IMG/VR virus record: IMGVR_UViG_2880378312_000006
Strand: one strand, 5' to 3'
DNA from: a virus
Taxonomy: Duplodnaviria > Heunggongvirae > Uroviricota > Caudoviricetes
Length of the DNA stretch: 64,000 nucleotides
Below the pieces are notes generated by a model that saw nothing but the letters and a program-made list of their open reading frames with translations, was not told the DNA's origin and did no database searches. The position numbers and the translations under genes were made by a program. Numbering within the stretch: position 1 is the stretch's first letter; the number at the start of each line of letters is the position of its first letter. Below, piece after piece: positions 1 to 23,943 of this stretch.

Positions 1-1
1 G

Positions 2-988
2 GTGGAAGAGGTGGCGCGTCACGCTGAGGAGGCGAAGAAGAATGCCGGAGAGGCGGAGACGTCAGCGAGGAATGCCGGCATATCAGCCAGTCAGGCAGAA
101 GAGAGCGCTGCAAATGCTGACACTTCAGCAGGGGATGCATCGGAGTCAGCCCGGCAGGCGGCAGAAAGTGCAGCCGCTGCAAAGCAGTCAGAGGAGGCGT
201 CCTCGTCCTCGGCCTCTGCGGCCGCTCAAAAAGCCAGTGAGTCATTACAAAGTGCAACAGATGCTGAGTTGTCAAAAAAGACGGCAGAAAGTGCAGCCGG
301 TAATGCAGCCAGGGATGCAACGACCGCAGCAGAAAAAGCCCGGGAGTCAGCAGAAAGCGCACAGTCAGCGGAACAAAGCAGGATAGCGGCGGAAGAAGCC
401 GTAAACCGAATCCCCACCGTGGTGGGGCCTCCCGGGCCAAAGGGGGAACCGGGGCCCGCGGGTCCTCAGGGGCCGAAGGGAGATAAAGGAGAGCGTGGAG
501 ACACCGGCCCGGCAGGGGCAACCGGCGAACGGGGACCGGCAGGTGATGCTGGTCCGGCAGGCCCGCAGGGGCCGAAAGGTGACAGGGGAGAGCGGGGAGA
601 GACCGGTCTGACGGGAAATGCAGGTCCACAGGGTCCAAAGGGAGACACCGGGGCAGCAGGCCCGGCAGGCCCACAGGGACCGAAAGGAGAAACAGGTGCG
701 GCTGGCCCGGTGGGGGCAACCGGACCTCAGGGACCGAAGGGCGACCCGGGGGAGACACAAATCCGTTTTCGTCTGGGGCCGGCGAGCATTATTGAGACAA
801 ACAGCCATGGCTGGTTCCCGGGTACAGATGGTGCGCTCATCACCGGACTGACCTTTCTTGCCCCCAAAGATACCACACGGGTTCAGGGTTTTTTTCAGCA
901 TTTGCAGGTCAGGTTTGGTGACGGGCCGTGGCAGGATGTTAAGGGGCTTGATGAAGTGGGCAGTGATACAGGCAGAACAGGAGAATGA
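2..988 (+). CDS. Tail fibre protein, C-terminal part (5' end lies outside the window); collagen-like Gly-X-Y repeat region plus C-terminal tip domain
   Basis: ORF open from the window edge; translation contains long GPxGxxG repeat runs; about 98 percent identical to the C-terminus of the complete tail fibre at 58483-59796. Confidence 0.85.
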
Positions 989-989
989 C

Positions 990-1259
990 ATGAACATACT
1001 AAAAAAACTTATGCAGCGTCTGTGCGGGCACGGAAAGCATGATGACCGTGAAGACGGGGAGTTACTTACAGCACAACTGCGTCTGGGGCCGGCAGACATC
1101 CTGGAGTCCGATGAGAATGGTATTATTCCGGAGCAGGACAGGGTAATCACGCAGGTGGTGATACTGGATGCGGATAAAAAGCAGATACAGTGCGTGGTAA
1201 GACCGCTGCAAATCCTGCGTGCTGACGGGACGTGGGAAAATATTGGCGGGATGAAGTAA
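990..1259 (+). CDS. Small conserved protein (89 aa) immediately downstream of the tail fibre; function unknown
   Basis: ATG 1 nt after the tail fibre stop; near-identical copy at 59798-60067; followed by a hairpin plus T-run. Confidence 0.55.
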   Translation: MNILKKLMQRLCGHGKHDDREDGELLTAQLRLGPADILESDENGIIPEQDRVITQVVILDADKKQIQCVVRPLQILRADGTWENIGGMK

Positions 1260-1274
1260 CCCGACAGCTTCACA

Positions 1275-1300
1275 AAACCGGAGTCCGGCTCCGGTTTTTG
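1275..1300 (+). terminator. Intrinsic terminator (hairpin ccggag/ctccgg plus T-run) after the tail fibre operon
   Basis: GC hairpin followed by ttttt; same structure after the duplicate copy near 60085-60110. Confidence 0.5.
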
Positions 1301-1371
1301 TTGTCATGTAAGGCAGATGTTTGTTAAAGCTATTTAAGTCTGGAGTTTAAATTAAAATAGGGAGTTTTATA

Positions 1372-1946
1372 ATGCCGTTAAATTCGGAGATTAGATCAAG
1401 CTCATTTTTAATGGATTGAATGTCCTTCGAGCTCAAGTAGCATCTAGCGGTCGAGGGGAGTTTACATTAGGTAATGAGACTGTCAGCATTGTATTTAATG
1501 AAACCGATGGGCGTTTTCTATCCAGCGGCAGTAGTGGGGGATTGCTTACTGAGTTATTCCTTTATGGGTTTAATAACGGCCCTGAAGCTCTTCGCGATAG
1601 GATGCTCAGTATGCTTTCGGACTCAGGTGAAGCACAATCGCAAGAGAGTATTCAGGACAAAATATCTCAATGTAAGTTTCCTGTTAGTTCAGGAAATTTC
1701 CAGTGCCCGCCAGAGTCTATTCAGTGTCCAATTACACTAGAGAGACCCGAAGAAGGAGTGTTTGTCAAAAATTCAGATAGTTCGGCAGTATGCTGCTTAT
1801 TTGATTTTGATGCATTTTCTCGTTTAGCTAGTGAAGGCTCATATCATCCACTGACCCGAGAACCAATAACGGCATCAATGATTATAAGTCCTGATAAATG
1901 TGTTTATGATCCTATCAAGGGAAACTTCATTATAAAAGATAGTTAA
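1372..1946 (+). pseudogene. nleG: nleG-family T3SS effector gene with an N-terminal frameshift
   Basis: ATG at 1372 gives MPLNSEIRSSSFLMD then a stop at 1417; the rest (ORF 1416-1946, no ATG) matches the intact homologue at 60181-60756 in another frame, including the conserved C-terminal CPITL...HPLTREPIT region. Confidence 0.7.
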
Positions 1947-2285
1947 AATATTTTTCTCTGAGAGAGTATTGGCTGTCAGTAATTTGTAAAAAAACGCCGC
2001 AGACATCCAGAATATAAGAAGGTGTCTGTGGTTGGCAGGTTTCAGATGACTTGAAGGCGTCTTTATGTAAATGCATTTTTCTGTGGAGATGTTGTCGGAA
2101 AATATTGGATTAAAAACATAATCCAAGTCAAATAGTAAGTTTGTTTTTTTTGAGATTAGGTGTGTGTATTTAGAATTTTTATGATGTGTTTATTTTGTGG
2201 GGTATTTTAGAAAAAATATATTAATCCTTATTAATAATAGCTGCCATCCATTTCAGCTATTATTTTAAAATAAACAAGTTAAAGC

Positions 2286-3611
2286 TTAGACTCTTGTTTC
2301 TTGGATTATATCAAAGATATCAACATGATTTGATGGATTATGATGTGGTAAGCCATTGCTTTCGATATCGATTACCACATCCTCTGGATTTGGATGCCGC
2401 TGTCCAACAGGGATACCTTCTTCCATTGCGCGTATATCAGCACCTGTGGCATGTTCAATATCTGCTTTATTGGGGAAAATAGCTCCTTCTCTTGCGTGCC
2501 ACCATATACGAGGATAGTCAGTGAATCTAGCTACTTCAAACTCGGCCTTGTTTAAATCGGCAGCCCCCAGTGTCGCACCAGCCCACCATAAAATAGTGTC
2601 TGGCTTTAATCCAGGGGTATTATACTGTATGGCATGCCCTGCTGCTTGCCCAACCATTGCACCGATATGAGGACTTAACATTGGATCTGTACTAGCAAAT
2701 CTGGATACTGCAAATCCCCCTAAAGCACCAAGCGCATTTGCGGCAGCATTGGTAAGAACGGCATATTTAGTATTAGGGTTATCTAAATCCCACTTGAAAT
2801 GTGCGCCAAACTCCAGCCCTAGAGTTGCCTGTAATGGAGATGCACCATATTTAAAATCTGCTTCTCCCGGTCTGATAACCCACTCCTCCGTGTAATTTGC
2901 TTTCGGCCCATCAGGAGTAAGTGGTGTTTCTCCAACAAGCTTCCATCCATTTTCAGTTTTGACTATAGGAAGTTCTACACCATGATTACGAACCACTTGA
3001 GCTGTTAATCCAAACCATGGTATTGGGTCTTTTGGCTCGGTGGTTACCGTCGAAGTAGTGGCTGATGTTCCAGTCGATGCAATAGTCGACACTGCAGTGG
3101 TTGATATATTACTGTTGCTTAATGCATTTTTTAACGGGCCAGGAAGGTCTTTAAAATTAAAACCTATTTCATCATGCAGAGGGAATATCTGTAAAAAATA
3201 ATTACCTGATGTAGGATGAATATCTGGTTTTACAATGTTTAGCTGGACACCATATTTACCAGAGATGCCTGAAACGGAACTAGGTATCTCTAATGCCATT
3301 TGGGTAACATTGAATAAACCAAACATATCCAATGTTTTTTTTCCTATGGATCCTTCTTCAAGGTGAGGAGCTATATATTCGTCTAGCCCTGAGAGCAGAC
3401 CTTTATCTTTTATCAAGCTCAGTAGAGCTGTTGTTTCACCGCATTCCGGTGCATGTTGCTGTATATCATCTGGAATATTAACAACAAATCCAGCTTGGCA
3501 TCCTAGAGGTAATTCGGATTGCGGTATTTGTGTAGAGGGTATTTGTTCTGTTTGATGATGTTGATTGTTTTGTGAGGTGATTCCAGATTGTATGGTCGGT
3601 TGAATGTTCAT
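2286..3611 (-). CDS. nleA: T3SS effector NleA (EspI), 441 aa
   Basis: 441-aa ORF starting MNIQPTIQSGITSQ and ending in the PDZ-binding motif ETRV; matches NleA from recollection; AT-rich upstream region. Confidence 0.85.
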   Translation of the reverse strand: MNIQPTIQSGITSQNNQHHQTEQIPSTQIPQSELPLGCQAGFVVNIPDDIQQHAPECGETTALLSLIKDKGLLSGLDEYIAPHLEEGSIGKKTLDMFGLFNVTQMALEIPSSVSGISGKYGVQLNIVKPDIHPTSGNYFLQIFPLHDEIGFNFKDLPGPLKNALSNSNISTTAVSTIASTGTSATTSTVTTEPKDPIPWFGLTAQVVRNHGVELPIVKTENGWKLVGETPLTPDGPKANYTEEWVIRPGEADFKYGASPLQATLGLEFGAHFKWDLDNPNTKYAVLTNAAANALGALGGFAVSRFASTDPMLSPHIGAMVGQAAGHAIQYNTPGLKPDTILWWAGATLGAADLNKAEFEVARFTDYPRIWWHAREGAIFPNKADIEHATGADIRAMEEGIPVGQRHPNPEDVVIDIESNGLPHHNPSNHVDIFDIIQETRV

Positions 3612-4001
3612 AATAAATCCTTATTACATGTTTATATCCATTAATAATATCAATCCATTGATACTATTAGTGTCACATATCCGATGTGGACAGCTTTAAT
3701 ATATAACTGTTTGAATGCTTGATTGATGTGACTTAGATCTCAAAATTAAGTTGTTAAATTTACCAGTTTATCGCTTGAACACTTAAAATAAATTATAAAT
3801 GTTTCTGTTATTGTTTTTTATAGTTTAAATTATTGTTGGTTGTATAAGCTGATTACATTTTTACTCTAAGTGTTATAAATATTTTATACTGATATTAGTC
3901 TTATTATATATTTTTTTAATGAAAATGAGCATAAAACTAAGACATATAATGCTTGGCAGCTTTATGCTCTTCTGATTGGCTGTATGTTTGATGACAAAAA
4001 A

Positions 4002-4036
4002 TTAGCGCAAGAGGACAAAAAATCACCTTGCGCTAA
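4002..4036. repeat. Perfect 10-bp inverted repeat (ttagcgcaag ... cttgcgctaa) with a 15-nt spacer; copy 1 of a roughly 170-bp diverged repeat
   Basis: Read directly; second copy at 6007-6041 with one arm substitution that keeps T-G (RNA G-U) pairing. Confidence 0.8.
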
Positions 4037-4271
4037 TGCTCTGTCTCAGGTCACTAATCACATCTAACTCATTGATTAATTGTGACTCTAAATGTAGTGT
4101 TTTGTCGCGTTTTGCAGTCTATCATTTAATCAATTGTATAAATAACATAATGATTTTTAATGTGTTTTTGTGATTTTATCCTCCTTCTGACATGGAAGTT
4201 GTTCGTTCAAAAATCTTATTAAATATCAAGTTGTTAAATCTGGTAAGTCATTATTGGTCAAAATAAAATCA

Positions 4272-5210
4272 TTATCCGATTTCAATTTTGTCCCACTCCC
4301 GCCCGCGACTGTCCCTATAATGCGCCGCCATTGAATCAGATTTATGTCCAAGAAGACGTTGTGCAAACTTGTAGCCAATCTGGTTCCGATATAGCCTCGC
4401 GGACAGACTACGTAGTTCATGAAATGTCGGTGGGTCTCCATCAAACGAGATCCCGGATGCATTTCGCGCCTTTGTTAAATACCGTGATACTGTGGCTGGA
4501 GAAAGTGGTTCGTGATAGGTTGATGCGATTATTGTTTCACTGCTGCTGGCCTCCCTGCATTTCTGTAGTGTATCAACCAGTGAGATGTCGAGTGCGTCAA
4601 TGGTTAGAGCCAGCGGAATGGCAATTTTGGCTCCTGTTTTACTCTGTCCAATGTGAAGATGACCATCGTTTATGTCTGACCACTTCATTCTGCACAAATC
4701 GCCCACTCTCTGCCCTGTAACGACAGCTAAATCCATTGACAGCCTCAGCCAGATGGGGAGGTGCTCAGCAGCATGGTAAATAGCGACATACTCATTAGCT
4801 GTCAGCCTTGAGCGCCTTACTTCTGACTTTGCTGCACGGGTTGTTGTTACTGGATTCGTTGCCACATGCCCCTCGGCTATTGCCCCTCGAAAAACGTCAA
4901 CAAGGGTTGACCTGATTACTCTTGCGGAAACCGCTTTACCTTCTGCGACGTAGGTGTTTAGCATTGCTGCCACCTCTTTCGTTGATATGTCAGTGAGCGG
5001 TTTGTCCGGCAATTTTCTTCGAATTGCCCTGATTTTGCTGGCGTAGTCGAGTAATGTTTTCGGCTTGCTCCCCCTCTAGCTGAGGATTGTTTCATATCGA
5101 TCAAGCCACGTATGAAGAGTGATTGAGTCAGTGCCTTTAACCCTGTCCAGCAATGATTCGTGCCCACTTTCGCTGAAAAGCTCAATGTTGGTGTGAATTC
5201 TACGAGCAAT
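4272..5210 (-). pseudogene. int: Lambda-type tyrosine integrase remnant (N-terminus replaced, internal amber stop)
   Basis: 246-aa ORF aligns with lambda Int from about residue 110 to the C-terminus (EGHVATNPV...HELRSLSARLY...GHKSDSMAAHYRD); the upstream frame reads ...TLHTWLDRYETILS-stop-RGSKPK where lambda has ILASRGIKQK; similarity ends near 5210. Confidence 0.8.
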
Positions 5211-5339
5211 GAAATGCCTCGTGGAAGGATGCAGTGATGATTTTAATCCTTTTGATATTATTAGGGTACCAGATCTTACTTACAACAAAGGATCTTTACA
5301 ATGTGGATGATTAGAGGCCTGTGAGCCTGTTTAGGATTC

Positions 5340-5991
5340 TGTGTAAATGCCTTTTCTTAAAAGTGACCGTCAAGACGGTCACCAAACTCGATAATAAAGC
5401 GGCTCATTGCCATTCGCCAGTCCCTTAACGGCATTGTCCATTTCTGTGACGCGGCCTGGATTGCCAGCCACACCACTTTTTTTACTGACTCGTCCGTCGG
5501 GAACACCTTGCGTTTCCTGATGGCATGCCGGATCACACTGTTCAGCGACTCGATGGCGTTCGTTGTGTAGATCACTTTGCGGATATCTGCCGGATAAGCG
5601 AAAAACGTCGCCAAGTTAGTCCAGTTTGACAGCTAGCACCGGCTTATCTGCGGATAGCGGCAGTCCCAGGCCGCAGCAAACGCTTCCAGTGCCTGCTGGC
5701 CTGCCTCTTCTGTGGGAGGCTAATCGCTTTCAGGTCGCGAGTGACGGCTTTGTATTCCTTCCATGACACGAAGCGCATGCTGTTGCGCACCATATGCACG
5801 ATGCATAACTGGATGCGGGCCTCCGGGAATTCTTTCAGGCCATACACACAGGCGATGAGGATATCGTTCAGACCGCGGTTTTTCAGTTCAGTCAGCACAT
5901 TGAACCAGAAATTCGCCCCTTCATTTTCGGCCAGCCGCATCCCCAGGAGCTCTTTCTGACCTGCGATATTGATGCCCAGTGCTAGGAACAT
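5340..5991 (-). mobile_element. IS256-family transposase remnant (frameshifted fragments)
   Basis: ORFs 5357-5614 and 5644-5991 carry IS256-family motifs (ILGINIAGQKELLG...LCIVHMVRNS...NAIESLNSVIRHAIRKRKVFPTDESVKK...WTMPLRDW); broken reading frame, no intact ends seen. Confidence 0.7.
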
Positions 5992-6006
5992 TTTTATGAT
6001 AAAAAA

Positions 6007-6041
6007 TTAGTGCAAGAAGACAAAGAATCGCCTTGCGCTAA
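6007..6041. repeat. Copy 2 of the inverted-repeat element (ttagtgcaag ... cttgcgctaa)
   Basis: Same orientation as copy 1; surrounding 170 bp about 75 percent identical to 3990-4160. Confidence 0.8.
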
Positions 6042-6275
6042 TGCTCTGAAACAGGTCACTAATATCATCTAAATAGTTGACTCATAGTGACAGCATGTGT
6101 TGTGTCTTGCAGTATTATATAGCCTATTATTTAGATTGAAGCCATCATAATCTATTGATGTTAATGGTTTTTTATTGTTTGTTGTTCGGCTTTTTATACT
6201 AATTTGAGCGAAACAAAAAGATAAAAAGTTGTTTTTCGGTAAGCGTACAGCGAGGGCCGTATTGACGGGGATGTG

Positions 6276-7814
6276 TTATTCAGCTGGCAGTGCTATGCGC
6301 CACGGAAGCAGTTCGCTGACCCGGTTGACCGGCCAGTCTGCTATGACGCCAAGCACATGGCGAAGGTAGCTTTCTGGATCCACGTCATTCAGTTTGCACG
6401 TCCCGATCAGGCTGTACAGTAGCGCTCCCCGCTCACCACCATGATCAGAGCCGAAGAACAGGAAGTTTTTACGACCCAGACTGACCGCCCGCAGGGCATT
6501 TTCAGCGATGTTGTTGTCGATTTCCACCCAGCCATCGTTCGCATAGTACGTCAGTGCCGGCCACTGGTTAAGTGCGTACGCGAACGCCTTCGCCAACTCT
6601 GAGTGTCGCGACAGGGTCTTCATCTTTTCACGCAACCAGCTTTCCAGGGATTTCAACAACGGTTTCGTTTTTCGCTGACGTTCAGCAAGCCGCTGCTCTG
6701 CCGGCATTCCCCTTATATCCGCCTCTATGGCGTACAACTGACCGATCTGCTCCAGGGCTTCTTCCGTCAGTGCTGACGGGATGCGGACGTGCACATCGTG
6801 GATCTTTCGGCGGGCATGAGCCCAGCAGGCAGCTTCCGTTATCCCACCATTGCGATACAGCTCGTTGAACCCGGCGTACGCATCCGCTTGCAGCACACCG
6901 CTGAAGCAGGCAAGATGAGTCTGCGGATGGATGCCTTTTCTGTCCGGGCTGTAAGCGAACCACACTGCAGGTGCCAACGCTGACCCTGCATTGCGGTCAT
7001 CACGAACATACGCCCACAACCGCCCGGTCTTCGTCTTCTTATTACCCGGCAGCAGTACCTGGACCGGGGTATCATCGGCATGGAGTTTGCCGTCAGTCAT
7101 GACATAGCCATGAAGCGCCTCTTCCAGCGGAGACAGCAGCCGGCAGCATGCATCCACCCAGCCCGACAGCAGTGAACGCCTCAGCTCCACACCTTGCCGG
7201 CCGTATATTTCTGACTGGCGATACAGCGGGGTGTGCTCTGCATACTTCGAGGTCAGCACGCGGGCCAGCAGCCCCGGTCCGGCGATACCCCGCTCGATGG
7301 GCCGCGAAGGTGCAGGTGCCTGCACGATGGCATCGCACTGAGTACAGGCATGTTTTTCCCGTACCGTCCGGATAACCCGGAAGGCGCTACGCATCAACTC
7401 CAGCTGTTCGGCGGTATCCTCGCCCAGATAGCTCAGTGAACCGCCGCAGTTCGGGCAGCACGGCGCCGCAGGCAACAGTCGCTTTTCGTCACGGGGTAGT
7501 GATTCAGGGAACGGCTTACGGGTGCGGGTCTGACGCAACGGACGCTGTACTGCCGGGTCATACACCCTACCAGTCAGCGTATCGCTCTCTTTCTGAAGCC
7601 GGTTCAGATCGGCTTCCATTTGTGCGATACGGCGGGAGACTTTTTCGGAACGACTGCCGAAGTTCATCCGGCGGAGTTTATCCAGCTGCGCCTGCAGATG
7701 GTCTATTTCGCGCTCCCGGTTGCTCAGCTTTTCCTGCAGGGCGTGGATCAGCGCTTCCTGTTCGGCCAGGCGCTGTTTCAGCAGGAAGATGTCGTCAGAA
7801 GAGATGTCGTTCAT
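6276..7814 (-). CDS. tnpC: IS66-family transposase (TnpC), 512 aa
   Basis: Full-length ORF with coiled-coil N-terminus and zinc-finger-like CPNCG motif, inside the IS. Confidence 0.85.
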
Positions 7815-7863
7815 AAGCCCGTATTTTACCGGGCTTATTCTGTGACAACCAGGATAAAGAGAT

Positions 7864-8211
7864 TTACAGCATGGTCAGGGAGGTCAGCAGCCGCTTAGGC
7901 TGTCGCCAGTCGATACCTTCCAGCAGCATCGCCAGCTGCGCCTGCGTAAGGAACACTTTGCCATCACGGGCTGACGGCCAGGCGAAGCGCCCACGCTCCA
8001 GCCGTTTGGTCAGGAGGCACAGTCCGTCACCGGTGGACCACAGCAGTTTAACCTGACTGCCGCTGCGGCCCCGGAAAATGAAAACATGGCCGGACATGGG
8101 ATCGTCTTTCAGCGCCGTTTGTACTTTCGCAGCCAGGCCGTTGAAGCCATTTCTCATATCGGTGATACCGGCAACCAGCCAAATTTTGGTCCCGGAAGGT
8201 AACGGGATCAT
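7864..8211 (-). CDS. tnpB: IS66 Orf2 (TnpB), 115 aa
   Basis: Conserved IS66 Orf2 size and position; overlaps the upstream gene by 4 nt. Confidence 0.8.
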
Positions 8212-8609
8212 CGCTTCAGTTCCTGTATCAGCAGAGTCAGGAGCTTTTCGCTGACATTGCCATTGAAGCGGAGCGTCCCGTGCCGGAACGTTACCTCACA
8301 GCTGATACTGAGGGTTTCCGGGTCCTCTGCGAGCGATTCTGGCTGTTCGGCAGCTGCATCGAGAGTCACAGGAAGTAGCTGGGGGCTCTCTGAAGAAGGT
8401 AATAGCAGCTTTCCCTCGCGCCATTGTTGTCGCCATTTGAACAACAGATTGGCGTTAATGCCATTTTCAAGAGCAAGTTTTGAGATGGATATCCCGGGTT
8501 CACAGGAGGCAGCAACGAGCTGCTGTTTAAATTCGGGAGGATAATTAGGGCAGCCTTTTCGCCTGCCGGGAGTCACATTTTTCTGCATATCTGATACTTT
8601 GGTTCCCAC
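8208..8609 (-). CDS. tnpA: IS66 Orf1 (TnpA), 133 aa
   Basis: First gene of the IS66 three-ORF set. Confidence 0.8.
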   Translation of the reverse strand: MGTKVSDMQKNVTPGRRKGCPNYPPEFKQQLVAASCEPGISISKLALENGINANLLFKWRQQWREGKLLLPSSESPQLLPVTLDAAAEQPESLAEDPETLSISCEVTFRHGTLRFNGNVSEKLLTLLIQELKR

Positions 8610-8892
8610 TACTTATTTGGTGGACACCACTTTGTCTAATTCGTCAGATTCTGACCAGACGGTTCAGGCTGTACGCTTACGTTTTTCGTGTCTTTAAGTG
8701 ATACCAGATGGTATTGCGCTAAATGTACCAATGGGTATACCAAGAGCACTAAAAACAAAGGGGCAACCACTTTGTAACCCCTTGATTATTTGCAGAAGCG
8801 CAGAAAATCGAACTCTGGAACCCTTTCGGGGCATCCTTTTTCAAGAATGAAGAAAAAAATAACTAAAAAATCAAGTTGTTAGGAAGTTATTC

Positions 8893-9162
8893 ATGGCTAG
8901 TGTACCAACTCTTTTCTGGGCTAATAGCTATGATTTGTTTGTATTATTTGTCTCTGTCTCTATTATTTTTGACATCCATGCGACTTCTGATATTGATAAC
9001 CTCAGTTGTGGAGTTCTGTCTGCGCTTCCGGGAGGACGCATATCAAAACTACAGGATCTTCTGTTAAACACTGTAAAGCCATCTACATTGCATGTTGTTG
9101 AGTCTAAGATACAATTTTTAGTAGATGATTTATCTGCTATAGGCCTAGATATTTCAGGTTGA
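8893..9162 (+). CDS. Hypothetical small protein (89 aa) in an AT-rich region next to ISEc8; possible effector-gene fragment
   Basis: ORF with aggaag RBS-like sequence upstream; no recognisable family. Confidence 0.25.
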   Translation: MASVPTLFWANSYDLFVLFVSVSIIFDIHATSDIDNLSCGVLSALPGGRISKLQDLLLNTVKPSTLHVVESKIQFLVDDLSAIGLDISG

Positions 9163-9419
9163 TGCCAAGTGTGTCCTGAAAAAATACTTTTTATTGAAAA
9201 TGGCATTTTTATCCTCACATTATGTCTTTCTCTTATAGTGCAATTTAATGTATTTAGAAACATTAAACTATGAATCTAAAAAGGCTACGCAGAGTACTGT
9301 TACACTTTAACAAATCATATTTACCACTCTGGAAATGGGATGGCTGGTTCATAAAATAATGAGTCTTTTTCAACGGTTGTTACATTGGTGTACTGATGAT
9401 TATGCCTTGTCGCTAAGAG

Positions 9420-9680
9420 CTACCATAACCGTACAGCGTGATTCATCCATGGCGAATAAATCGACTGATAAATCCCCCTGAGTTTCAGCTCTTGCTGTTG
9501 GACCTTGCCCGTTTCGCTATGGAACGCGTACCAGCTAGAGAATATTATTCGTTCTCCTCCAATGTTACGCAAGTTTTGTAAACGGTAACCAATCGTGATT
9601 AGTCCTGCATGTAACGGACATCAAGCTGTCTGGTTGATTTTTATTGCCAGTAGTTCGAGAGAGCAGACAACTGCGTCCGA
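9420..9680 (-). mobile_element. Internally deleted IS630-family remnant
   Basis: Segments match the ends of the larger IS630-like remnant at about 11700-12650 (for example 9600-9670 versus 12240-12310). Confidence 0.4.
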
Positions 9681-9916
9681 TGGAAAAATGGGCACGACAG
9701 GGTATTCAGGCAACCTCGCTGAGGAGGCTTATGGTACAGATTGTAATGTGAAGTATAAAACGTTAAAAATTCCATTTTAGAAACTAAATAGCTGTAATAT
9801 AAGTTCGATCTAATCTACTATTTTGACAGACAGATTGTATCAAGAATTAGGGAGTATGAAATAGATGGCAATAACTAGTAAAATTAATTTTGCAACATTT
9901 AAATCGAACCATACAG

Positions 9917-10564
9917 TCAAATTCTAGTGCATATATTTTGTGTGGCTAATATGCAAAAATATTGTTCTATTAGATTAAAATGGCATTCATCTTTGCTGAC
10001 AATCATTTCCGGAACAAAGGGTTCACGGCTGAGAGGGTGTGGAGCGTTGCGTCGGATAAGTTCAGTGAGTGCATTGTGGTCATATAATGAACATATTTCT
10101 GAGTTTTTTGCATTTCTGACAAAAACACCAGTTTCAGGAATGCATAATGTTATCGGGCAATTCAGGTGTTGTTCATGACAGGAAAAGTCTTGATGACTAA
10201 CAGTAAATGCATGAGAGTTAATTTTGTTTTGTATTGCACTACTGACGTTTTGGCGCGTACATGGGGTTGCACGGCTCTGTTCCATATATAAACGGAATGC
10301 CTGCAAAAAAGTATGGCCTCTGTTAAGCTGTATCTCCAGATTTTCTGCGAGAAGGCGATGCCCTCTTGCACTAAGGCGATCCAACAGTCCGCCGGAAACC
10401 GGTTCCACGCTAAAACTGTCCATAAATGAAATATGATGAAGTCTCATAGTGCGGCCTCTCACAACAAGCTGTTCACTCTGACTAACTCTTCCGACATGAC
10501 GTAAAGCCTCCAGTTCACTTTCAGACAATACTCTTTCACTCGAAAAGTTTAATATGACAGGCAT
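9917..10564 (-). CDS. nleG: NleG-family T3SS effector (U-box E3 ligase family), 215 aa
   Basis: Conserved C-terminal block CPITLCIPETGVFVRN...HPLSREPF shared with the other NleG paralogues in the window. Confidence 0.75.
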   Translation of the reverse strand: MPVILNFSSERVLSESELEALRHVGRVSQSEQLVVRGRTMRLHHISFMDSFSVEPVSGGLLDRLSARGHRLLAENLEIQLNRGHTFLQAFRLYMEQSRATPCTRQNVSSAIQNKINSHAFTVSHQDFSCHEQHLNCPITLCIPETGVFVRNAKNSEICSLYDHNALTELIRRNAPHPLSREPFVPEMIVSKDECHFNLIEQYFCILATQNICTRI

Positions 10565-10747
10565 ATTTTCTCCCTCTTTAGTCTATGTTATTGAACCATA
10601 TTGGTGACAGGAGTCAAGATACTAAATATGTGATAGGATTCAAACAAAAAATTAAATTTTGAACGAATGCTATTTACACATGTATTTTTTTAATTAAAAT
10701 GATTGTATACAATTTTTGTAAGCAAATTTTAATGAAAAGGATTTGTT

Positions 10748-22377: not shown

Positions 22378-22445
22378 CCAACAATATTCATGCCGGATTT
22401 CTTCCGGATGTTCGAGGGTAAAGTTCGGTATCAGAAGAGGTGAGT

Positions 22446-23489
22446 ATGGCTAATGCCTGGCTCAGATTGTGGCATGACATGCCAAATGACCCCAAGTGGC
22501 GAACGATTGCCAGGGTATCAGGACAGCCAATCGCAACAGTGATGGCAGTGTATATCCATCTTCTGGTGAGCGCGTCACGAAATGTCACGACATGTCACGG
22601 CGTGTCACTACGTGGTCACATTGATGTCACGACGGAAGATTTAGCAAGTGCGCTTGATGTGACGGAAGACGTAATTGATTCAATTTTGCATGCAATGCAG
22701 GGGCGGGTTCTGGATGGTGACCTTATTTCCGGATGGGAAAAACGTCAGGTGCTGAAAGAGGACAATGGTAACGTTTCGCAAACGGCAAAATCCCCGGCAG
22801 AGCGCAAGAGAGCGCAGCGGGAGCGGGAAAAGCTGCGGAAACATAATGCTGATTGTCACGATGAGTCACGACGTGTCACGCATCTGTCACGACAAGTCAC
22901 GACAGATAAAGATACAGATAAAGATACAGATACAGAATTAAACCCCACACATAACGCGCGCGAGAGTATTCCGACCAGTGAGTCGAATGGTGCGCCGTTG
23001 CAGACAGCCGAACCTGAATACCTGGACGGCCTGAGCGAACCGATCGGGAAATTTTCGATGACTACTGTCTGGCAGCCGTCGCCGGATTTTCGACAACGGG
23101 CAGCAGTGTGGGGTATGGCTCTGCCTGAGCCGGAATTTACACCTGCTGAGCTTGCCGCATTCCGGGATTACTGGATGGCGGAGGGGAAGGTTTTCACGCA
23201 GGTTCAGTGGGAGCAGAAATTTGCCCGCCACGTGCAGCACGTCAGGGCACAGGTAAAACCAGTCAGCAAGGGGGGAAGCCATGCAGCATCAGGTGGCACG
23301 GCATCACGGGCAGTTCAGGAAATCCGGGCTGCACGCGAACAGTGGGAACGTGACAACGGATTTATCAGCAACGGAAACGGCCTGGAAGCTGTGGGAGCTC
23401 ATGGGGGAGGTGTATTCGAACCGCTGGACTCAGAAGAACGGGGCCGCACCTTCGAAGCTCTGGATTGCCCAGATTGGTGCGATGACTGA
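22446..23489 (+). CDS. Phage replication initiation protein (O-like), contains the iteron arrays
   Basis: Position after the immunity region; two 10-bp-phased TGTCACG arrays lie inside the coding sequence as lambda ori lies inside O; start could be GTG 22440 or ATG 22446. Confidence 0.55.
   Translation: MANAWLRLWHDMPNDPKWRTIARVSGQPIATVMAVYIHLLVSASRNVTTCHGVSLRGHIDVTTEDLASALDVTEDVIDSILHAMQGRVLDGDLISGWEKRQVLKEDNGNVSQTAKSPAERKRAQREREKLRKHNADCHDESRRVTHLSRQVTTDKDTDKDTDTELNPTHNARESIPTSESNGAPLQTAEPEYLDGLSEPIGKFSMTTVWQPSPDFRQRAAVWGMALPEPEFTPAELAAFRDYWMAEGKVFTQVQWEQKFARHVQHVRAQVKPVSKGGSHAASGGTASRAVQEIRAAREQWERDNGFISNGNGLEAVGAHGGGVFEPLDSEERGRTFEALDCPDWCDD
22574..22631. repeat. Iteron array 1: six copies of (T)GTCACG-like motif at 10-bp phasing
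   Basis: gtcacg at 22574, 22584, 22594, 22604 (gtcact), 22613 (ggtcac), 22626. Confidence 0.7.
22855..22935. repeat. Iteron array 2: five GTCACG copies at about 10-bp phasing followed by GATAAAGATACA direct repeats (AT-rich)
   Basis: gtcacg at 22855, 22865, 22875, 22886, 22896, then gataaagatacagataaagatacagatacag. Confidence 0.7.
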
Positions 23490-23943
23490 ACAGCAAATCC
23501 GTCTGGTGTGCCGTCAGTGCATGGACCGCTGCCGGGCGGGTGAAACGTGGCCCCCGGACCTGGCTGAGTTTGTTGCGCTGATTTCGGAGAGTGGGGCAAA
23601 TCCATTTGGTCTTACGGTGGATGCCGTGATGGAAGAGTACCGGCGCTGGCGCAATGAATCCTGGCGATACGACGGGAGTGATAAATACCCGTGGCCACAG
23701 CCTGTGCTGTACCACATCTGCCTCGAAATGCGTACCAGAGGGATTGAGCGCCAGATGACGCAAGGTGAGTTAAAACGACTTGCGGAACGGCAACTGACGA
23801 AATGGGCAAAGCATGTTGGTAACGGGATGAGTGTTCCGCCAGTGCGACGACAACTGGAAGGGGCGAAACACCCGCAAGGGCCAACGCCAATTGAACGGCT
23901 GAAACAGGAATACGAACGCCGGAAGGCAGCTGGTTTTATTTGA
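23401..23943 (+). CDS. Replication-module protein (second gene), start uncertain
   Basis: ORF 23281-23943 overlaps the end of the O-like gene in another frame; internal ATG at 23401 is a plausible start; no Walker motif seen. Confidence 0.35.
   Translation: MGEVYSNRWTQKNGAAPSKLWIAQIGAMTEQQIRLVCRQCMDRCRAGETWPPDLAEFVALISESGANPFGLTVDAVMEEYRRWRNESWRYDGSDKYPWPQPVLYHICLEMRTRGIERQMTQGELKRLAERQLTKWAKHVGNGMSVPPVRRQLEGAKHPQGPTPIERLKQEYERRKAAGFI

Follow-up and report, generated by a model that had tools for sequence, protein, structure and literature searches.

A candidate iteron-type replication origin inside the initiator gene of a lambdoid prophage

Why would a phage replication gene carry two arrays of short, evenly spaced direct repeats within its own coding sequence? 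The question is raised by a stretch of 64,000 nucleotides of Caudoviricetes DNA (IMG/VR virus record IMGVR_UViG_2880378312_000006; hereafter the window, meaning the whole stretch at its full length), in which a gene for a predicted replication initiator contains six and then five copies of a GTCACG-like motif, followed by an AT-rich tract. The original prediction, made from the sequence alone, took these for phased iterons in the manner of the lambda origin within gene O, with a different iteron sequence. The analysis below indicates that 22574-22943 is probably a replication origin of a lambdoid prophage, made of iterons plus an unwinding element and placed inside the prophage's own initiator gene.

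Phasing and conservation of the repeat arrays

All eleven cores lie on the + strand, and Tandem Repeats Finder (TRF) reported period-10 arrays at both places. GTCAC begins at 22574, 22584, 22594, 22604, 22615 and 22626 in array 1 (spacing 10, 10, 10, 11 and 11), where four copies are exact GTCACG and the fourth and fifth read GTCACT and GTCACA, whilst in array 2 GTCACG begins at 22855, 22865, 22875, 22886 and 22896 (spacing 10, 10, 11 and 10). Measured between starts, 229 bp separate the last copy of array 1 from the first of array 2. The anatomy described in the first reading was recovered by direct inspection and by three tools: six plus five phased TGTCACG-like copies, at a spacing found to be 10-11 bp, a separation put at about 220 bp and direct repeats after the second array, which TRF places at 22902-22936 as ACAGATAAAGAT x2.9, directly after the last array 2 copy. 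A profile built from 182 array copies reads GTCAC, then G in 86%, with a spacer of 4-5 bp that is only weakly biased.

Such a cluster is not expected by chance: the rest of the window predicts 0.29 GTCAC in 328 bp, where 11 were counted (Poisson P = 3e-14). The nine exact copies among the eleven make up 9 of the 39 GTCACG sites of the window, both strands counted, and no second GTCACG cluster, as might be compared with SPP1 oriR, was found across the 64 kb. When synonymous codons were resampled with the amino acids kept, a mean of 2.0 and a maximum of 8 GTCAC copies were obtained in 20,000 trials, and permutation of the gene's own synonymous codons gave a mean of 3.4 and a maximum of 9, with 0 of 20,000 permutations reaching 11. 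The 10-bp unit cannot be a protein repeat because its core is read in three different frames, as S-R (TCA CGx), V-T (GTC ACG) and C-H or G-H (xGT CAC). The expectation that the gene encodes repetitive peptide held in part: VTTCHGVSLRGH and TDKDTDKDTD are both present in the product, but the peptide is not repetitive at the DNA period.

None of the 83 close loci, among them those of the named phages Evi and Tritos, lacks the arrays, so the loss from close homologues that would have told against the prediction was not seen. Array 1 has four or six copies in these loci and array 2 has four to six (three to six across the family). The family core of array 1 is four copies, to which the window type adds two; Evi and Tritos have four and are shorter by exactly 21 bp, that is by two units, and in their array 2 all five cores are unchanged whilst every spacer is different. 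Among 37 distinct close sequences, variable positions number 2 of 55 in the cores, 15 of 39 in the spacers and 63 of 116 at third-codon positions elsewhere.

Conservation extends well beyond the close relatives. The family has roughly 1,000 members; its N-terminal domain is ~60% identical across Klebsiella, Enterobacter, Pseudomonas, Azotobacter, Bordetella, Chromobacterium and others, and a scan of distant homologues, limited to one genome per species, recovered ~20 gamma- and beta-proteobacterial loci (45-72% amino acid identity) with GTCAC at gene offsets 128, 138, 148 and 159 and a second GTCAC set at offsets ~386-417. Their flanks of ~2.8 kb hold only 0-7 GTCAC/GTGAC. In 21 distant loci of this GTCAC class we compared codons that overlap cores with the same amino acids' codons elsewhere (Fisher's test). 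Valine was GTC in 42 of 43 core positions against 32 of 164 elsewhere (p = 2e-22), threonine ACG in 41 of 42 against 20 of 98 (p = 5e-19), serine TCA in 20 of 21 against 23 of 163 (p = 6e-14) and histidine CAC in 20 of 20 against 25 of 49 (p = 4e-5), whilst the arginine codon of the spacer uses all four CGN forms in the distant loci. This synonymous-site conservation at the cores agrees with the prediction of a DNA-imposed constraint on the coding sequence.

No 40-bp duplex between 20.5 and 25.5 kb is less stable than the tract that follows array 2 (dG -42.4 vs a mean of -55.7 +/- 4.2 kcal/mol). Its stability minimum, at 22904, lies in the top 0.8% of the window and is the only one of the listed minima to fall within an annotated gene. 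AGATAAAGATAAAG or a close variant stands three bases past the last core in nearly all array-bearing loci, and the tract of the relatives has a GC content of 15-35%, with purines forming 72-88% of its top strand in most cases; its low GC persists in loci of 60-70% GC (L096, L102 and L107). It is also kept in other reading frames, where LDKIREE, SHDRLDKRR or PQIREEE takes the place of TDKDKD. Judged from these codon and frame comparisons, purifying selection on the cores and the tract acts on the DNA and not on the protein. The tract resembles a DNA-unwinding element beside iterons and is a candidate for that role. Between 22300 and 23100 there is no DnaA box closer than two mismatches and no GATC site, both of which we count as neutral.

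Two further motif classes occupy the same two sites on the same strand at 10-11 bp spacing: CGAACG(C) in eleven distant loci (L112, L114-L117, L119, L124-L126, L128 and L129) and GTAACG in four (L086, L108, L109 and L118). Every gene of the CGAACG and GTAACG branches carries the identical motif at both arrays. Such concerted change is the pattern expected of one factor that reads both arrays and whose specificity has drifted.

A near-copy of the repeat, TTGATGTGACGGAAGA, occupies 22654-22669 of the window; it is conserved and differs from TTGATGTCACGACGGAAGA (22621) by C -> G in the core. It encodes LDVTE of the helix-turn-helix, with V-T written GTG ACG and not GTC ACG, and its reverse-strand GTGAC is retained in most family members.

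Domains and mosaicism of the initiator

Coordinates of the gene, its domains and the DNA elements are collected in Table 1. The initiator gene is preceded by a cro-like gene and, in the cII position, a gene of the YdaT family; a cI-like repressor gene, also upstream, lies on the opposite strand. The gene that follows encodes a product matching Phage_lambda_P (Pfam PF06992, 57.9 bits), carries the label 'replication protein P' at the corresponding position in the annotation by the Prokaryotic Genome Annotation Pipeline (PGAP), and is followed in turn by a DUF1627 gene.

Table 1. Features of the initiator locus (window positions; amino acid positions refer to the initiator)
Feature	Position	Strand	Description
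Array 1	22574..22631	+	Six GTCAC(G) cores, 10-11 bp spacing; read directly, confirmed by three tools
Array 2	22855..22901	+	Five GTCACG cores, 10-11 bp spacing; read directly and by repeat-finding tools
AT-rich, purine-rich tract	22902..22943	+	(ACAGATAAAGAT)x2.9 + ACAGAATTAAA; candidate DNA-unwinding element and recombination joint of N- and C-modules
Initiator gene ('O position')	22446..23489	+	347 amino acids (aa); open reading frame with replication-type domains
N-terminal winged-helix domain, like the DnaD N-terminal domain (NTD)	aa 1-~100		
Basic helix	aa 117-133		
Disordered linker	aa ~135-196		AlphaFold2 (AF2) model
DnaT-like three-helix domain, binding single-stranded DNA (ssDNA)	aa ~197-270; 23034..23255	+	C-module travelling with the loader gene
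Disordered tail	after DnaT-like domain		
Lambda-P-like helicase-loader gene	23482..23943	+	Overlaps the end of the initiator gene; open frame upstream to 23281

The description of the gene as 'O-like' stands for its position and role but not for its family. Phage_rep_O (PF04492) gave no match to the whole protein or to its N-terminal half in Pfam scans at E up to 10, by which homology to lambda O was ruled out, and RepA_N (PF06970) gave none at the same limit; by sequence the protein belongs neither to the lambda O family nor to the RepA_N family. It has instead an N-terminal domain with the winged-helix fold of the DnaD N-terminal type and a DnaT-like domain (PF17948) that scores above the gathering cut-off and shows the three-helix fold. 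Weaker matches were obtained with two models of the N-terminal domain of phage replisome organizers: for the N-terminal domain with TIGR01714 (profile positions 1-118 of 119, at 17.2 bits vs a cut-off of 49.8; E 0.0045) and for the window protein with PF09681 (12.8 bits, below cut-off, vs 23.3 for the Evi homologue). Two 'replisome organizer' families of the PHROG database match (phrog_4880, E 3.5e-6; phrog_10469, E 8e-9), and many close relatives are named 'phage replisome organizer' by NCBI. The set of domains, a winged helix like those of the DnaD NTD and RepA_N and a DnaT ssDNA-binding domain, with a lambda-P-like gene next, fits an initiator.

In the AF2 model array 1 encodes a loop, SRNVTTCHGVSLRGHIDVT (aa 44-62), between helix 3 (aa 29-45) and the helix-turn-helix (aa 63-84). 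The loop is modelled with a low predicted local distance difference test score (pLDDT) at aa 49-55, and the two extra units specific to the window type fall below 50. Array 2 encodes CHDESRRVTHLSRQVT in the disordered linker, where the tract is likewise located, and the two arrays bracket the coding sequence of the helix-turn-helix, the wing and the basic helix. The DNA signals are thus placed in parts of the protein that tolerate arbitrary sequence.

The gene is a mosaic with its joint at the tract. The first 492-498 bp of a query starting at 22440, 6 bp before the ATG, include both arrays and the tract and are ~85% identical to Evi, Tritos and other named phages, whose C-terminal halves are unrelated; in the alignment with Evi and Tritos the similarity ends right past ACAGATAAAGATACAGATAAAGATACAGAT. 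Over its last ~550-585 bp the gene shares 86-97% identity with genes of the DUF1376/YdaU type, that of Rac-SA53 among them, which are also followed by a P-like gene, and the similarity to Rac-SA53 begins inside the same kind of tract (AATAAAGATACAGATACAGAT...), behind a different N-module in which no GTCACG arrays were found. Because the recombination joints fall at the tract, N-terminal domain, arrays and tract form one exchangeable cassette, and the alignments indicate that the C-terminal domain travels with the loader gene. Recombination of the gene at the AT-rich tract is what an origin at this place would explain.

In ydaU of Rac-SA53 (L136 1443-1545) the GTCACG arrays are replaced by the pair GGTGTTCAAACA/GGTGTTTGAACA, 23 bp apart, and an AT-rich (GATAAA/GATACA)n tract is common to window 22902-22943 and this unrelated N-module. 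This suggests that different origin-binding domains share a common unwinding element at the crossover point.

A probable origin and the alternatives to it

The prediction of phased origin iterons within the initiator gene is supported by the synonymous-site conservation, by the conservation of the arrays in all 83 close and about 25 distant homologues, by the concerted motif change and by the low-stability tract; the identity of the binding protein, the melting of the tract and the start of replication at this place are inferred. The initiator would be expressed from the early rightward promoter, and its N-terminal winged-helix domain would bind the GTCACG cores, probably with the basic helix and perhaps with the array-1 loop. 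The bound proteins should line up along one face of the DNA, since successive cores point the same way at intervals of one helical turn, and they may form oligomers, a property of DnaD-NTD and RepA_N domains; the arrays may also be drawn together across the ~230 bp between them. Such a complex would strain the (GATAAA/GATACA)n tract, where duplex stability in the region is lowest, until it opens, and the C-module, with its DnaT-like ssDNA-binding domain, would together with the lambda-P-like loader bring host DnaB to the opened strand.

Selection on the DNA, helical phasing and concerted motif change show that something reads the duplex but not that replication starts there, and the arrays might be protein-binding sites of another kind, serving autoregulation, copy control by handcuffing, a transcription roadblock, a centromere-like function or packaging. 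In architecture, two arrays of short direct repeats phased at one turn are no closer to ori-lambda than to a centromere or pac site: in parC of plasmid R1 the 11-bp iterons form two sets of five, and pac of phage P1 comprises two clusters of hexamers. We nevertheless consider a non-origin site unlikely, given that both domains of the host gene and its downstream partner are all of replication type, that a conserved, purine-rich tract of low stability follows the arrays directly at a fixed distance, that the arrays travel with the initiator N-terminal domain as a cassette and that no partition ATPase or terminase gene is adjacent. An integrated lambdoid prophage needs no centromere, and autoregulatory and origin roles are not mutually exclusive. 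The repeats could also act in the early mRNA, as binding sites or structure controlling translation or stability of the initiator; all copies are indeed in mRNA sense in the window and in all relatives, and constraint at synonymous sites would look the same. The orientation of the copies carries no information, however, because it is fixed by common descent within a coding frame, and the 10-11 bp period is the helical repeat of duplex DNA, kept through 21-bp and 10-bp indels; the AT-rich tract and the cassette behaviour are explained directly by DNA unwinding and not by RNA. A role in the RNA is thus very improbable.

Scarcely tenable, finally, is the view that the arrays have no function in the DNA and are either a by-product of conserved peptide (SRNVT-RGH-DVT; CH-ESR-VT; DKDKD) or the result of strand slippage that expanded a simple repeat in a loop and linker able to tolerate it. 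The peptides SRNVT, RGH, DVT, CH, SR and VT are conserved across the family, and copy number changes by indels of unit length, as in slippage. Against this stand the fixed synonymous codons of the cores (p 4e-5 to 2e-22), the failure of synonymous resampling ever to yield 11 copies of a core that is read in three frames, the retention of the tract across frames and against host GC content, and the joint switching of motif at both sites in other subfamilies; the peptides, moreover, lie in a low-confidence loop and a disordered linker, where constraint on the protein should be weakest. A repeat at the protein level was rejected as the cause by the codon tests, and the comparisons as a whole have largely refuted this explanation.

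Several observations weigh against the origin as proposed. Arrays are absent in nine distant relatives (L105, L113, L120-L123, L127, L130 and L131), and are therefore not obligatory for the domain family. The gap between arrays is 229 bp in all close relatives and mostly 227 or 229 bp in distant ones, but otherwise ranges over 188-319 bp, so that a constant helical phase between the arrays is not supported. Identity of the N-terminal domain is 0.70 within the GTCAC class vs 0.63 between classes, and a clean split of this domain by motif class was not found, the classes interleaving in clustering by the unweighted pair group method with arithmetic mean (UPGMA). The surface that reads the DNA is uncertain because the presumed recognition helix of the helix-turn-helix (EDVIDSILHAMQ) is acidic and the DnaD N-terminal domain is known more for oligomerisation than for sequence-specific DNA binding. 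The related prophage of E. coli O157:H7 TR01 looks defective, with integrase, RecE, portal and capsid pseudogenes, and for prophages of the Sp11/Sp12 type in O157 Sakai neither excision nor replication was seen (PMC2669165); for both reasons the copy in the window may never fire. In open-access texts we found no description of these repeats or of an origin for this family, and nothing relevant on origins of DnaT-domain or replisome-organizer initiators in lambdoid prophages or on TGTCACG iterons.

The only protein positions that separate the GTCAC from the CGAACG class lie in the array-1 loop and in a basic segment (aa 108-128), and covariation of repeat and initiator is weak for the N-terminal domain outside these two, which alone in that domain differ systematically among the GTCACG, GTAACG and CGAACG classes. 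It is conceivable, if distinctly doubtful, that the cassette is self-referential, array 1 being at once a binding site and the coding sequence of a loop (aa 44-62) that helps to read the iteron. Were this so, changing the repeat would alter the site together with its reader, and a single step could give rise to new origin specificities (incompatibility types); the joint switching of both arrays would then be explained.

Known systems, relatives and the host prophage

The iterons of ori-lambda are ~19 bp long and palindromic, and in hybrids between lambdoid phages ori stays together with the N-terminal part of O, and P with its C-terminal part. The lambda origin lies mid-gene in O, with one array of four O-binding iterons adjoining an AT-rich tract (PMC7466680), and the Shiga toxin (Stx) phages P27 and 933W have six-iteron origins of the same kind as lambda ori in O. 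The locus in the window resembles lambda in having an origin candidate inside the initiator gene, an AT-rich tract beside the repeats and a P-type loader gene downstream, in its place in the early right operon after genes in the cro and cII positions, and in the pairing of N-part with ori and C-part with P, which matches the mosaicism described above. It differs in that the proteins are not homologous, with a DnaT-like C-terminal domain in the window gene, and in that 6-bp direct cores recur once per turn in two arrays separated by ~230 bp, of which array 1 lies among the codons for the DNA-binding domain itself; a repeat scan found no palindromic 19-mers. Of the predicted lambda ori-in-O arrangement, then, the layout of a candidate origin in the initiator gene, the AT-rich tract and the loader were retained, whereas two arrays of 6-bp cores stand in place of one four-iteron array.

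In the Bacillus phage SPP1, oriL is embedded in gene 38 as direct repeats (AB boxes) bound by G38P with an adjacent AT-rich unwinding element; the loader G39P and the helicase follow, and the initiator is without an AAA+ domain (PMC6316719, PMC5737612). The repeats of gene 38 lie mid-gene, at offsets ~360-450 of 771 bp, and in this resemble array 2 plus the tract. Their sequences and lengths are unlike those of the window, and SPP1 has a second origin, oriR, elsewhere, whereas the window has no second GTCACG cluster. SPP1 G38P has no detectable sequence similarity to the N-terminal domain of the window protein (BLASTP E = 13), and PF09681 does not match G38P itself. One relative (P0100), with 65% identity in the N-terminal domain, has a C-terminal PF09524 (Phg_2220_C), which is the C-domain of the G38P type; this links the family of the window gene architecturally to SPP1-type replisome organizers. 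For Rep of plasmid pSK41, the central segment encoded by ori is a dispensable linker (PMC5703833), and in the window protein the segment encoded by array 2 and the tract likewise falls in a linker. The RepA_N system of pSK41 differs in belonging to a Firmicute plasmid and not to a phage of Proteobacteria, and in its primase-binding domain, in place of which the window has a DnaT-like C-terminal domain with a lambda-P-like loader; the window also has a second array in the coding region of the N-terminal domain and hexamer cores at one-turn spacing.

The principle of an origin with iterons and an AT-rich tract inside the initiator gene is thus already established for lambda, SPP1 and RepA_N plasmids, and is in itself unsurprising. 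New here is an uncharacterised and widespread family of putative origins with three specificity classes. No origin has been described so far for a replication module of this type, and a testable one is now offered for a module that is common in E. coli and widespread in gamma- and beta-proteobacterial prophages. Three iteron specificities on one protein scaffold would give a handle on the evolution of origin specificity and phage incompatibility, and a DNA signal written through the coding frame, in a tolerant loop and linker, is a natural experiment on overlapping constraints. In the prophages of enterohaemorrhagic E. coli (EHEC) the candidate marks where prophage replication and local amplification would start.

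Some relatives vary the arrangement further. The same N-terminal domain occurs without arrays or tract at offsets ~300-470 in L122 (a Serratia metagenome-assembled genome, MAG) and L131 (Pantoea), where its direct fusion partner is a different domain (YVYYVA..GISRNPWAR..); in L131, gene offsets 328-462 carry ACTACG/CGTAGT repeats. In Erwinia phyllosphaerae (L094) GTCACG stands at 5-bp spacing (GTCACGTCACGTCACG) at offsets 141-223 and 411-450, and both arrays mix in inverted GTCACG copies, which makes this a compressed version of the arrays. Near-identical copies of the proteobacterial gene were met on short contigs whose assemblies are placed in unrelated phyla, namely an Anaerolineaceae MAG (L110), a Collinsella MAG (L132) and Staphylococcus saprophyticus (P0043); these probably reflect a binning or contamination artefact and not host range.

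The initiator gene has a 100% identical counterpart in E. coli O157:H7 strains; of 5,426 complete E. coli genomes, 2,498 contain a match to some part of it, and in 654 the match covers 80% or more. At 98-99% identity in this region the closest genome is O157:H7 TR01; since the window comes from a close but not identical strain, TR01 was rejected as an exact map of it. By similarity to TR01, where a pair of tandem lambdoid prophages next to ydfJ is defective, the window spans two such tandem prophages, at ~1-17800 and ~17900-56000. The TR01 annotation of the related region lists IS66/IS256 elements together with nleG7 and DUF1076 effector-like genes, and its late region contains tRNA-Arg and tRNA-Ile genes.

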